A stretch of 64,000 nt of DNA from Bacteroidota bacterium (GCA_037033465.1 JAZBLX010000002.1:109299-173298); one strand, 5' to 3'; shown: positions 23,760 to 59,619, counted from the stretch's first letter. Translations and numbers: made by a program. Notes: generated by a model not told the origin, from the letters alone.

Positions 23760-23791
23760 GCCGTTCCGTTTTAACCGGAAGGGCTTTTTTT
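23760..23791 (+). terminator. Intrinsic terminator after the ribosomal-protein mini-operon
   Basis: GCCGTTCCG pairs with CGGAAGGGC (one G-G mismatch), followed by a T7 run. Confidence 0.7.
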
Positions 23792-23810
23792 GTTATATAA
23801 AAATTTAGAT

Positions 23811-24773
23811 ATGGGCTTATTCGATTTTTTCAAAAAGAAAGAAACTGCACCTGAAGCACAAGAAGCTTTAGACAAAGGTTTAGAAAAGACCAAAGATGGT
23901 TTTTTCAATAAAATAACCAAAGCTGTCGCAGGTAAATCTTCTGTTGATGATGAGGTACTCGATAACCTGGAAGAGGTTTTAGTTACCTCTGACGTTGGCG
24001 TAAGCACTACATTAAAAATTATCAAACGGATTGAAGAGCGTGTCTCCAAGGATAAATACCTCAATACTTCAGAACTTAATTATATCCTGAGAGATGAAAT
24101 TCAGCTTTTACTGGCCGAAAACAACAGCAACGATTTCCGTCAGTTCGAATATGGCGACCATAAACCCTATGTAATTATGGTGGTTGGCGTTAACGGCGTG
24201 GGTAAAACTACCACTATCGGAAAGCTGGCGCATAAGTTAAAAGAATCGGGACTTAAAGTGGTATTGGGCGCTGCCGATACTTTCAGGGCTGCAGCGGTAG
24301 ACCAGATTAAACTTTGGGGTGAACGTGTTGGTGTTAGGGTAGTGGCGCAGGCGATGGGTTCTGACCCGGCTTCTGTTGCTTTCGATACTTTACAATCTGC
24401 TGTAGCTGCAGGTGAAGATGTGGTAATTATTGATACTGCAGGTCGCTTGCATAATAAAGTAGGCTTAATGAATGAGCTTGGCAAAATTAAGCAGGTAATG
24501 CAGAAGGTTGTTCCAAATGCGCCGCATGAAATTTTATTGGTTTTGGATGCTTCAACTGGCCAGAATGCTTTTGAACAATGTAAACAGTTTACAGAAGCTA
24601 CTGATGTGAATGCATTAGCCATCACCAAACTTGATGGAACAGCAAAAGGTGGCGTGGTCATCGGAATTTCAGATCAGTTTAGAATCCCGGTGAAATATAT
24701 TGGTGTAGGTGAAAAAATAGGAGATTTACAGCTATTCGATAAAAAGGAATTTGTGAATAGTTTGTTTAAATAA
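23811..24773 (+). CDS. ftsY: Signal recognition particle receptor FtsY
   Basis: MGLFDFFKKK start and the SRP GTPase motifs GVNGVGKTT, DTAGR, TKLDG. The track start at 23790 is a TTG inside the terminator T-run, so ATG 23811 is preferred. Confidence 0.92.
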   Translation: MGLFDFFKKKETAPEAQEALDKGLEKTKDGFFNKITKAVAGKSSVDDEVLDNLEEVLVTSDVGVSTTLKIIKRIEERVSKDKYLNTSELNYILRDEIQLLLAENNSNDFRQFEYGDHKPYVIMVVGVNGVGKTTTIGKLAHKLKESGLKVVLGAADTFRAAAVDQIKLWGERVGVRVVAQAMGSDPASVAFDTLQSAVAAGEDVVIIDTAGRLHNKVGLMNELGKIKQVMQKVVPNAPHEILLVLDASTGQNAFEQCKQFTEATDVNALAITKLDGTAKGGVVIGISDQFRIPVKYIGVGEKIGDLQLFDKKEFVNSLFK

Positions 24774-24778
24774 CGCAA

Positions 24779-25290
24779 GCGGTTAAGCACAGATCTTTCA
24801 CTTCGTGGATGATTTCACAGATTGTTGGATTACACAGATTATCAGTAACTTCAACAATGGAAGAATATGAAAATCATGAACTTACCAGAATTATTATTGG
24901 CTGTTGCTACGAAGTTCGTAATCAGCTAGGACCAGGCTTTTTAGAGAAGATCTATGTTAATGCCCTTAAAATAAAACTTCAGCAAGCTGGGTTAAAATTT
25001 GATGTTGAGAAGGAGTTTGTAGTGAGGTTTGAAGACCAAATTATTGGTAAATTTAGATGTGACCTGGTTGTAGAGCAAAAGGTAATTGTTGAATTAAAAT
25101 CTGTAACGGGTTATCAACCTAAATTATTTCAGAACCAACTTATATCTTATTTAAAAGCCAGTAAAATTAAGACTGGATTACTGATTAACTTTGGCAACAC
25201 AAGCTGTGAGGTAAAAAGAATAGCTGTGTAGTCCTTTAAAATATCCACAATAGAATCTGTGGAATCGCTAGATCTGTGGAATCAAACCGC
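24779..25290 (+). mobile_element. Putative insertion cassette carrying a GxxExxY gene, bounded by inverted repeats
   Basis: The left end is GCGGTT(aag)CACAGATCT (24779-24796) and the right end is AGATCTGTG(gaatca)AACCGC (25270-25290), which are mutually inverted. Inner extra copies are GATTTCACAGATT (24811-23), GGATTACACAGATT (24827-40) and GAATCTGTGGAATC (25253-66). Confidence 0.4.
24857..25231 (+). CDS. GxxExxY-family protein (PD-(D/E)XK nuclease-like fold)
   Basis: IIGCCYEV...LGPGFLEKIY..AL...L..AG........V.V.F....IG.FRCDLVVE..VIVELKSV pattern, including the G-x2-E-x2-Y signature. Start taken at MEEYENHEL, because the longer track ORF would translate the flanking repeat. Confidence 0.75.
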   Translation: MEEYENHELTRIIIGCCYEVRNQLGPGFLEKIYVNALKIKLQQAGLKFDVEKEFVVRFEDQIIGKFRCDLVVEQKVIVELKSVTGYQPKLFQNQLISYLKASKIKTGLLINFGNTSCEVKRIAV

Positions 25291-25313
25291 AAGGAAGCGT
25301 AAATAAAATTAAT

Positions 25314-26645
25314 ATGAATACCAAAATAGTAAGAAGTAAAAGCGCAATAAAACAACCTAAAATCAATGTGATTACTTTGGGTTGCTCAAAAAACATCTAC
25401 GATTCGGAAGTGTTAATGGGTCAGTTGCGTGGAAACAATTTAAATGTGGTTCACGAATCTGATAAGATGGGGAAAGATGATATCGTGGTAATCAATACCT
25501 GCGGTTTTATCGACAATGCTAAACAAGAATCAATTGATACCATTCTGCAATTTAGTGAATTAAAAGAAGCAGGTAAGATTGGAAAGGTAGTGGTAACCGG
25601 TTGCTTATCGGAACGCTACAAACCAGAGTTAGAATCAGAAATAACCAACGTTGATGCCTTTTTCGGCACGAACGACTTACAAAATATCCTGCACGAATTA
25701 GGGGCAAACTACAAACACGAACTCATTGGTGAACGTTTGCTCACCACGCCATCACACTTTGCTTATTTCAAAATAGCAGAAGGTTGTAATCGCCCATGCT
25801 CATTTTGCGCCATCCCGCTGATGCGAGGAAAGCACATGAGTAAGCCGATGGAAGAATTGGTGAATGAGGCAAAAATTCTTGCTAAAAACGGCACGAAAGA
25901 GCTGATCTTAATTGCACAGGATCTTACCTATTACGGATTAGATTTATATGGCGTCCGCAAACTAGATGAATTGATGCGTCGCCTCTCTGATGTACCGGGC
26001 ATTGAGTGGATTCGTTTGCAATATGCTTACCCAAGTGGTTTCCCGATGGAAATTCTGGATGCCATGAATGAGCGTGATAACATCTGTAAATACCTGGATA
26101 TGCCGTTACAGCACATTACCGACAATATGTTGAAATCGATGCGTCGTGGTACTACTAAGCAAAAGACAATCGACCTGGTAAATCAAATTAGAGATAAGGT
26201 TCCGAATATTGCCATGCGTACCACATTAATTTGCGGTTATCCAGGCGAAACACAACAGGATTTTGAAGAAATGGCTGCCTGGGTGGCTGATACAAAATTT
26301 GATCGTTTAGGTTGCTTTACTTATTCTCACGAAGAAAAAACACATGCCCATACCCTAATTGATGATGTTCCTGATGAAGTAAAACAACAGCGTGTTGATG
26401 ATATTATGGAAATTCAACAAGGCATATCTTTCGATATCAACCAAGAGAAAGTTGGCCAAACATTTAAAGTATTAATTGATAAAAAAGAAGGTGACTTCTT
26501 TGTAGGAAGAACAGAATTTGATTCCCCTGAAGTAGATAACGAAGTTTTAATCGATGCTGCAACTGGTTATGCGGCCAATGGAAGTTTCGTACAGGTGAAA
26601 ATAGACAGAGCAGAAGATTTCGATTTATACGGCACAATCGTTTAA
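25314..26645 (+). CDS. rimO: Ribosomal protein S12 methylthiotransferase RimO
   Basis: 443 aa. UPF0004 N-domain (VITLGCSKN), radical-SAM CNRPCSFCAIP, C-terminal TRAM domain. Confidence 0.9.
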   Translation: MNTKIVRSKSAIKQPKINVITLGCSKNIYDSEVLMGQLRGNNLNVVHESDKMGKDDIVVINTCGFIDNAKQESIDTILQFSELKEAGKIGKVVVTGCLSERYKPELESEITNVDAFFGTNDLQNILHELGANYKHELIGERLLTTPSHFAYFKIAEGCNRPCSFCAIPLMRGKHMSKPMEELVNEAKILAKNGTKELILIAQDLTYYGLDLYGVRKLDELMRRLSDVPGIEWIRLQYAYPSGFPMEILDAMNERDNICKYLDMPLQHITDNMLKSMRRGTTKQKTIDLVNQIRDKVPNIAMRTTLICGYPGETQQDFEEMAAWVADTKFDRLGCFTYSHEEKTHAHTLIDDVPDEVKQQRVDDIMEIQQGISFDINQEKVGQTFKVLIDKKEGDFFVGRTEFDSPEVDNEVLIDAATGYAANGSFVQVKIDRAEDFDLYGTIV

Positions 26646-59572: not shown

Positions 59573-59604
59573 AATCTGTGAAATCATTTTAAATCTGTGA
59601 GATC
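59573..59604 (+). repeat. Two direct copies of the AATCTGTGNAATC-type motif (orphan copy of the GxxExxY-flank motif)
   Basis: AATCTGTGAAATC (59573-85) is the exact reverse complement of GATTTCACAGATT at 24811-23. The second copy is AATCTGTGAGATC at 59592-604. Confidence 0.7.
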
Positions 59605-59619
59605 ACCTAATTAAATAAA

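Follow-up and report, generated by a model that had tools for sequence, protein, structure and literature searches.

A GxxExxY gene framed by mirrored arrays of a short word between ftsY and rimO in Pedobacter: a candidate nuclease with cognate repeats

The spacer between ftsY and rimO in a Bacteroidota genome raises the question of why a single small gene, a member of the GxxExxY family, should be framed on both sides by copies of one short word, written in one direction on its left and in the other on its right. The locus lies in a stretch of 64,000 nucleotides (GCA_037033465.1 JAZBLX010000002.1:109299-173298), hereafter the window, from a genome of Pedobacter (5.48 Mb, 39% guanine plus cytosine; closest records Pedobacter sp. 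Bi126 and P. borealis). The answer favoured here, to which a probability of roughly 0.5 is given, is that gene and repeats belong together as a cassette whose putative nuclease would recognise its own flanking units, by a logic like that of RAYT transposases with their repetitive extragenic palindromic (REP) sequences or of Ssn nucleases with their NTS repeats, in an anatomy resembling that of the intervening sequences (IVS) of 23S rRNA. Handles beginning with G, C and L denote genomes, contigs and loci.

The cassette and its protein

Positions 24779-25297 of the window hold one copy of a gene-plus-arms cassette, in which the GxxExxY gene stands between inverted arrays of a 12-13-nt unit (GATTNCACNGATT). 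Units written as in the left arm are termed L-type, and their reverse complements, as in the right arm, R-type. The spacer, taken from the ftsY stop (24773) to the rimO start (25314), holds one open reading frame (ORF), and the cassette is shown to fill the entire gap from upstream stop codon to downstream start codon inside operons. The features of the locus are as follows.

23790..24773, + strand: ftsY (signal recognition particle receptor), the upstream host gene; PF00448, E 1e-74; stop codon 5 nt ahead of the outer repeat
24779..24797, + strand: outer left end, GCGGTT plus a degenerate unit (AAGCACAGATCTT); pairing partner at 25270-25290, from repeat search and duplex prediction
24799..24807, + strand: CACTTCGTG mini-palindrome ahead of the left units, from sequence comparison with arrays
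24811..24840, + strand: left arm, two full units, GATTTCACAGATT (24811-24823) and GATTACACAGATT (24828-24840), 17 nt start to start
24857..25231, + strand: GxxExxY gene, 124 aa, PD-(D/E)XK superfamily; PF13366 and TIGR04256, with G27xxE30xxY33, D69, E79 and K81
25254..25283, + strand: right arm, AATCTGTGGAATC (25254-25266) and GATCTGTGGAATC (25271-25283), 17 nt apart, the reverse complement of the left units
25285..25297, + strand: outer right end, AACCGC within CCGCAAGGAAGCG; the AAYCCGNAGGAAAA tail is also found after R-type units in gene-less arrays
25314..26645, + strand: rimO, the downstream host gene; UPF0004, Radical_SAM and TRAM_2 domains; start 30 nt past the last unit

An earlier, sequence-only reading had described this locus as a small selfish or mobile cassette, or else a gene with a protein-binding array on either side, dropped into a housekeeping block. 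All of its coordinates proved correct on re-inspection, including the outer ends (GCGGTTAAGCACAGATCT at 24779-24796 and AGATCTGTGGAATCAAACCGC at 25270-25290) and the 7-nt copies of the word (CACAGAT at 24788, 24816 and 24833; ATCTGTG at 25255 and 25272, 17 nt apart), but the true unit is longer than that word, at 13 nt. The 512-bp stretch holds five of the 12 ATCTGTG sites of the window, with 5.8 ± 2.5 expected over the whole 64 kb. The gene order rpmB-rpmG-DUF4295-ftsY-[gene]-rimO is present as had been claimed, and the stated lack of a transposase is upheld by the finding of no transposase-like ORF between 21 and 29 kb of the window. The gene likely starts at the ATG at 24857, not at 24809, because the alignment of relatives begins at 24857.

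Assignment to the GxxExxY family is confirmed by profile matches, with PF13366 at 124.6 bits (cut-off 22; E 3e-36) over profile positions 2-117 of 117, and TIGR04256 at 131.6 bits (cut-off 35; E 2e-38). PF13366 is the sole Pfam match of the cassette protein, which is identified neither as an HUH/Y1 transposase nor as a GIY-YIG enzyme; PADLOC gave no match, and a sequence search with the protein found no relative in the PDB. The AlphaFold2 model (predicted local distance difference test score 74) has the topology H-H-E-E-E-H-E-E, and its best PDB fold match by Foldseek, a weak one, is Cas4 SSO0001 (E 4.5e-3, template modelling score 0.50). The model is consistent with a RecB/Cas4-like PD-(D/E)XK core. 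The residues G27-F-L-E30-K-I-Y33, D69, E79 and K81 are invariant across 26 homologues of 60-95% identity, and the median ratio of nonsynonymous to synonymous substitution is 0.06 for the gene versus 0.014 for ftsY and rimO. These alignments show a gene held by purifying selection with its predicted nuclease active site intact; it is nevertheless often broken or lost. A 2012 survey of PD-(D/E)XK enzymes listed PDDEXK_3 as of unknown function and subject to multiple transfers (PMC3424549), and the gene-plus-mirrored-arms layout was nowhere described in the literature retrieved by full-text searches on GxxExxY, PF13366 and cassettes of IVS proteins.

Coupling of the word to the protein lineage

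L-type units stand upstream and R-type units downstream in 108 of 118 intact homologues (53-98% identity), the reverse layout being seen in three, and only about 0.01 units per flank are expected by chance. Nearly all of 80 metagenomic homologues (53-98% identity) carry GATTNCANNGAT-type units on both flanks. Outside ftsY-rimO, 33 homologue loci were found, 28 of them with L..R arms, in contexts that include truB-ribF, rpsK-rpsD, pstB-phoU, histidine kinase-response regulator, x-metH, an aminoacyl-tRNA synthetase followed by x, nuoL-like and x-nusA; Pfam confirmed truB-ribF, x-rpsD, x-phoU, histidine kinase-x, x-metH, an aminoacyl-tRNA synthetase, nuoL-like and x-nusA. One of the histidine kinase-response regulator copies comes from a metagenome-assembled genome (MAG) labelled as a deltaproteobacterium. 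The subfamily thus placed keeps the same word in at least 14 kinds of spacer, and its protein tree contains at least 16 context changes, with ftsY-rimO copies sister to copies elsewhere (e.g. L034 with L117, 97% support). Between copies in different contexts, homology starts at the outermost left unit and stops at the outermost right unit; in relocated copies the left unit may overlap the upstream TGA stop, and the right unit lies 10-30 nt or less ahead of the next start codon. The modal spacing of units is 17 nt in ftsY-rimO loci and 22 nt in other contexts.

An enrichment of ATCTGTG around other GxxExxY genes of the genome, on which the sequence-only reading had made its cassette depend, is absent. 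The word is missing from all six other GxxExxY loci and the 11 four-helix-bundle (PF05635) loci of the window genome. This absence does not refute the cassette idea, because most of these loci have mirrored arms too, each set built from its own word (CGCAAAG/CTTTGCG, GCAGATT/AATCTGC, AAGGT/ACCTT, AGTCT/AGACT or GAGAT/ATCTC), and the word tracks the protein lineage. Shared inverted 7-mers in gene flanks, a crude and noisy measure with an 8% background at the lower threshold and a rough control only, number at least three in nine of 16 cassette genes versus 8.1% of 4,369 other genes, and at least four in three of 16 versus 0.46%.

A second subfamily, B, comprising orthologues of the paralogue at C12:20478, behaves in the same way. 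Members at 77% identity or above carry CGCAAAG arms. At 69-75% identity the arms are CACAGAG, in part at the same locus, and a group at 49-56%, located at ligA-dapA, has CACAAAG arms. Across these comparisons every unit on both arms is shown to switch together when the protein clade changes, a concerted switch that is not required by a pairing constraint alone. The loci compared show the word to be specific to the protein lineage, other GxxExxY lineages carrying other words, and the arms appear to behave as the sequence-only reading had proposed, as arrays of one specific, recognised word.

Two further arrangements were seen among such cassettes. At C31:51899-53895 and C12:5043-6931 of the window genome, single genes within operons are bracketed by pairs of PF05635 cassettes, and each cassette has a mirrored word of its own. 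Judged by flank sequence, the operons may be those of a thiolase gene and of a gene for arginine biosynthesis. At L230 (G097:C4), a GxxExxY cassette with GCAGAT/ATCTGC arms is directly followed by a masked stretch of N.

An alternative is that these are generic spacers, either slippage-prone simple sequence or binding sites of a host factor, with the gene merely sitting among the arms and bearing no specific relation to the word. Such a reading gains from the roughly 25 gene-less arrays of the word and the many other phased repeats in the spacers of the genome, from arrays that thrive in genomes lacking the gene, and from the nature of ftsY-rimO as a general hotspot that also takes two palindromic elements resembling miniature inverted-repeat transposable elements (MITEs) and a 555-bp two-ORF insert. 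It does not account for the same word standing beside the same subfamily in unrelated contexts, the MAG labelled as a deltaproteobacterium among them, at so low a chance expectation, nor for paralogues of one genome with different words, nor for the same lineage-word coupling in subfamily B. Judged from these loci, it appears largely contradicted by the coupling of word and protein, and is improbable.

Age and allele exchange at the ftsY-rimO site

A scan of species-representative genomes returned 49 close homologues, of which 48 lie between ftsY and rimO, at 60-95% amino acid identity. Their hosts are Pedobacter together with records labelled Nubsella, Mucilaginibacter and other Sphingobacteriaceae or Sphingobacteriales MAGs. 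In all 48 the arms are built from the unit seen in the window; an arm has between 1 and about 11 copies, whose variable base is T, G or A. Identity of the GxxExxY protein falls as low as 60% where that of FtsY is 77-99%. In an even sample of 121 Pedobacter genomes, with orthologues taken at 66% identity or above and all paralogues at 50% or below, the orthologue is present in 28, always adjoining rimO and in one gene copy per genome, about seven of these being broken or truncated.

In all 88 relatives inspected ftsY adjoins either rimO or the cassette, and the adjacency is kept in each of the 40 gene-less genomes fetched. In many of these the spacer measures only 15-46 bp, among them G105 with 21 bp, confirming the empty sites that the sequence-only reading had proposed to look for, while others contain one of two unrelated palindromic MITE-like elements or the 555-bp two-ORF insert; the leader ahead of rimO also differs between filled and empty alleles. 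Because gene-less spacers range from empty to differently filled, the ftsY-rimO junction is a hotspot with several alternative fillers, at which true empty sites exist. A discrete gene-plus-arms cassette in an otherwise tight junction is supported, but its recent insertion is not borne out, the cassette occupying the same junction across the genus (48 of 49 loci). By these comparisons the window copy is old and resident rather than newly arrived.

The strongest version of the earlier proposal would be a recently inserted autonomous transposon or homing element bounded by CACAGATCT terminal inverted repeats. Inverted termini are present, and empty sites exist, but the site is occupied genus-wide by copies diverged to 60-95% identity, with one copy per genome; there is no transposase; no target-site duplication, named as a check in the earlier reading, can be defined; and relatives do not share the exact CACAGATCT ends. 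Recent insertion of an autonomous element at ftsY-rimO is contradicted by the diverged copies found throughout the genus, and was rejected as highly improbable.

The other fillers of the junction are of three kinds. Ten gene-less genomes (L052, L053, L055-L059, L063, L066 and L068) have in the spacer an 80-150-bp palindromic MITE-like element (cgtcatgctgaatttatttcagcat ... cctgaaataaattcaggatgacg), and very close sisters can differ in filler, G026 carrying the cassette and G010 this element. A second palindrome family (cgtcattgcgaggcacgaagcaatc ... gattgcttcgtgcctcgcaatgacg) occurs in the spacer of L048-L051, L054, L060, L061 and L065; at four loci it stands in place of the left arm and nearly all of the gene, of which the last 25 codons remain, together with the right arm. 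The 555-bp insert with two small ORFs, found at L073 (G006) and L077 (G108), is the third kind, and by its appearance could be a toxin-antitoxin pair. Within the cassettes themselves, the right arm of L044 (Pedobacter superstes) has grown to about 11 AATCAGTGNAATC units beside a frameshifted gene; array length is very labile.

Trees of the gene and of its flanks conflict. The gene data reject the host clades {WIN,L004,L011,L030} (approximately unbiased test, p-AU 5e-4) and {L001,L002,L003,L007,L016} (8e-40), WIN being the window copy, and the flank data in turn reject the gene clades (p-AU 3e-10 and 6e-4). Sliding identity reveals the window cassette to be a mosaic, its left arm and first ~25 codons resembling the host-sister L004 (90-97%), and the remaining gene and right arm resembling L001 (97-98%), the flanks of which are just 80-88% identical. 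Near-identical hosts differ in the same manner: between L001 and L016 or L007 the flanks are 97-100% identical and the cassette as little as 35-88%, the drop being confined exactly between the stop codon of ftsY and the start of rimO. Arm types track gene clades. From the conflicting trees and the mosaic it follows that cassette alleles, arms included, have been swapped between species at a fixed site, and together with the relocated copies these comparisons show gene and arms to be inherited, exchanged and relocated as one block.

A comparable situation is seen at C12:20478-20852 of the window genome and at L211-L223, where two allelic GxxExxY types occupy one locus within the genus, one at 73-75% identity to the window genome's copy with CACAGAG arms, the other at 82-86% with CGCAAAG arms. 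By this sequence comparison, the locus is a second case of whole-cassette allele replacement.

Dispersed arrays, pairing arms and known systems

The word also occurs apart from the gene. Matches to the strict unit pattern, AATCNGTGNAATC, number 38 in the window genome versus 3 for the reversed pattern that served as control, and range from 0 to 71 per genome across the genus. With one mismatch allowed, the window genome has 26 arrays of at least two units, 25 of them intergenic. Arrays beyond the cassette, which the sequence-only reading had glimpsed in part, thus amount to about 25 gene-less ones in this genome. Two are gene-less hairpins, in the spacers at C12:33587 and C51:22604, which by eye we take to be accB-accC and rpsG-fusA. 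Of the arrays between co-directional genes, 15 have R-type units 11-31 nt ahead of a start codon and five have L-type units after a stop codon. One R-type example lies in the window.

59573..59605, + strand: gene-less R-type array, AATCTGTGAAATC + AATCTGTGAGATC, 16 nt ahead of the kdpB start

Turnover of the arrays is fast, nine of 14 array loci of G047 having no array at the orthologous spacer in the window genome.

The gene-less arrays have companions. An element of the C(N)CTTCG(N)GG type is also found ahead of their L-type units (e.g. cgcttcgcgggtGATTAC, ccttcggtttGATTAC). In such arrays, for instance at C1:177317-177369, C33:11846-11938 and L174, units often occur with a CCGNAAGG or CCTTCGG-type mini-hairpin, and further phased simple repeats lie nearby (AGTCGGG, four times, and the AAAGACTAAAGC type). 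Mini-hairpins and phased repeats beside the units suggest composite spacer elements about 45-50 nt long.

The position of these arrays invites a regulatory interpretation, with the protein as an RNase or as a regulator that binds RNA or DNA sequence-specifically. Its targets would be the R-type arrays in some 15 leaders, those of kdpB and polA among them, and mobility would come second. The spacing of 11-31 nt from start codons and the excess of R-type over L-type arrays agree with this, as do the conservation of the protein and the presence of units on both sides of its own gene. Against it, array loci are not kept between species (the nine of 14 differing between G047 and the window genome), arrays persist without the gene, and the genes beside them are functionally incoherent. 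Such a role is as improbable as the generic-spacer interpretation.

The arms of the cassette can also be considered as RNA. Those of the window are predicted to form a duplex of -46.9 kcal/mol versus -24.4 ± 4.3 for shuffled right arms (z -5.2), and in both minimum free energy (MFE) and centroid structures they make the terminal stem of the folded 543-nt spacer (z -3.7; a prediction). The duplex z-score lies below -2 in 43 of 48 ftsY-rimO loci, with a median of -4.2; the clearest exceptions are L048 and L049, in which the gene is cut to its last 25 codons and another palindrome replaces the left arm. Read from the sequences, units pair at 12 of 13 positions, and the inter-unit spacers are unpaired, forming internal loops of 4x4 to 12x10. 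A left arm pairs with its own right arm at -34.4 kcal/mol and with foreign right arms at -32.1, a marginal advantage, and uncompensated A.G mismatches at the variable base are kept in L017, L018, L024 and L026. Classic compensatory covariation was rejected as the main signal, own arms pairing only marginally better than foreign ones. The arms are not one continuous covarying helix; as modelled, they can pair unit to unit as a segmented hairpin. Neither a + strand terminator nor an excess of sigma-70-like promoters was found in the ftsY-rimO spacer, and no Rfam match in 24600-25450. As the spacer has no + strand terminator, co-transcription is likely.

The arms might matter solely as a stem in the ftsY-gene-rimO transcript, an IVS-like RNA element in which cutting by RNase III uncouples the cistrons, the ORF is a passenger and the word is read by no protein. 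Pairing in 43 of 48 loci, the terminal stem of both predicted folds and the likely co-transcription all accord with this. The placement of R-type units 11-31 nt ahead of start codons resembles the positional rule for heptamer repeats (PMC4692102), and an ORF-bearing IVS excised by RNase III is documented (PMC4990558). A stem alone, however, leaves much unaccounted for. Conservation of the unit sequence goes beyond pairing and extends through at least 14 contexts and to proteins as little as 53% identical, the inter-unit spacers are unpaired, own and foreign right arms differ little, and the A.G positions at four loci persist without compensation. One word per cassette, with its units switching together, is unneeded for a stem, and the ORF is under strong purifying selection. 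A purely RNA-level role is therefore considered unlikely.

Several observations weigh against recognition of the units by the nuclease, the reading favoured here. Tracking of the protein tree by the word would be expected from co-inheritance alone, and common descent could likewise explain why the L..R polarity is fixed. The raw association between gene and arrays is strong (median 27 units per genome with the gene and 5 without; p 2e-9) but not significant in phylogenetically independent pairs on the ftsY tree, and because the signal vanishes there, dependence of the dispersed repeats on the gene is not accepted as support. Close sisters make the same point, G026 with the gene having 61 units and G010 without it 59, and G040 and G118 having 30 and 20. 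Four gene-less genomes hold 40-71 units (G052 71, G010 59 and G068 56 among them), and several genomes with an intact gene are at background counts of 3-10. The gene is unnecessary for keeping dispersed arrays, at least in the short term. The variable base preferred by a cassette predicts usage across its genome weakly (rho 0.36, p 0.11), and the bias of orientation, 15 R-type to 5 L-type, fits a role at the RNA level at least as well as one at the DNA level. Comparison of filled with empty sites, and of copies in different contexts, found neither a target-site duplication nor conserved termini, and a 124-aa PD-(D/E)XK enzyme is not known to transpose DNA unaided.

Under the favoured reading, in which the nuclease recognises its own repeats, the encoded protein would bind these units and probably cut at or near them, the candidate substrate being duplex DNA or a folded single strand, whether of DNA or of a read-through transcript. 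Such recognition would keep the word constant, would make the locus prone to recombination and so account for the swapping of alleles, and might occasionally copy the block, or arm-only derivatives of it, into other operon junctions. A wider and more doubtful proposal joins these strands: that GxxExxY proteins make up a large and so far unrecognised group of small nucleases with sequence specificity, each lineage having its own 7-13-nt word (GATTNCACNGATT, CGCAAAG, CACAGAG), and form with the mirrored arrays a distinct class of minimal mobile cassettes. Such cassettes would home into the stop-start junctions of operons, give rise to arm-only arrays within 5' leaders and turn the loci they occupy into hotspots of recombination, with the four-helix-bundle '23S IVS proteins' as a parallel class on the same chassis. 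GxxExxY (PF13366) is a widespread family without an assigned function. Were each lineage to read its own word, the family would acquire one, an explanation would be at hand for many of the odd operon spacers filled with repeats, both in Bacteroidota and in other phyla, and a natural panel of small nucleases with differing, predictable specificities would come to hand, as Ssn gave for single-stranded DNA. The ftsY-rimO site of Pedobacter offers a convenient natural experiment in this respect, since closely related species that can be cultivated differ in whether the allele is filled, broken, empty or filled with something else, and show at least two types of arm.

Among known systems, the 23S rRNA IVS is closest in anatomy, and in helix 45 of Coxiella 23S rRNA one such element bears an ORF and is excised by RNase III (PMC4990558). 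Both place a small ORF of some 0.4-0.5 kb within a host transcript, where it lies in a loop closed by a long terminal stem, the stem of the cassette being predicted, and both are horizontally acquired and then maintained, with an ORF prone to decay in some lineages. The cassette differs in lying in the mRNA operon spacer between ftsY and rimO and not in 23S rRNA (helix 25 or 45), in encoding PF13366 where the IVS encodes PF05635 (S23p), and in a segmented stem built of repeated, lineage-specific words. The phased GGGNATC heptamer repeats of Xanthomonas and Nostoc lie between aligned ORFs (PMC4692102). They share with the arrays a short phased unit between co-directional ORFs, a strand rule relative to stop and start codons and fast variation in unit number. 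Heptamers, however, are G-rich, quadruplex-forming, gene-less and tandem without spacers, whereas the 13-mers of the cassette have variable spacers and a complementary array and are tied to a protein lineage.

The ends of Tn7 and Mu each carry several direct copies of a protein-binding word, inverted between the ends. The cassettes likewise repeat a word at each end with fixed polarity relative to the interior (108 L..R to 3 R..L), but have no DDE or other transposase, no target-site duplication and only one copy per genome. Unlike insertion sequences and MITEs, the cassette has no transposase, no target-site duplication and no set of multiple near-identical copies. Homing endonuclease genes are nuclease ORFs placed at one conserved target, most often in an intron or intein, and relatives have empty alleles. 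The cassette has empty alleles and alleles exchanged horizontally at one site, but no intron or intein, and its subfamily is found in at least 14 kinds of context.

The nearest parallels in logic are the two systems in which an enzyme is paired with a repeat. RAYT genes encode HUH/Y1 transposases and are single-copy, flanked by their own inverted REPs, which are also dispersed intergenically (PMC3116915; PMC3733652). As with the cassette, a single-copy gene is long resident at one chromosomal site between its own short inverted repeats, the repeats are dispersed without the gene as units and hairpin doublets, mostly between co-directional genes, and different gene lineages have different repeat families. 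The cassette enzyme is instead a 124-aa PD-(D/E)XK protein; its units are non-palindromic 13-mers phased at a period of 17-23, unlike the 20-40-nt palindromes of REP; copies of its word run to tens and those of REP to hundreds; and the gene-bearing cassette itself is swapped between species and moved between operon junctions. The Ssn enzymes, GIY-YIG single-strand nucleases with NTS/SRM repeats, provide the precedent for a logic of nuclease plus repeat (PMC11893778). They differ from the cassette in fold (GIY-YIG against PD-(D/E)XK) and in repeats that are single hairpins, far more numerous per genome, where the cassette has tandem phased units in mirrored arrays. In both, a small nuclease gene is framed on either side by a short, genome-dispersed repeat, which Ssn recognises; variant repeats go with variant proteins; and the logic of discovery is the same association of repeat with both flanks across phyla, seen in 108 of 118 cassette loci, including 28 of the 33 that are non-syntenic.

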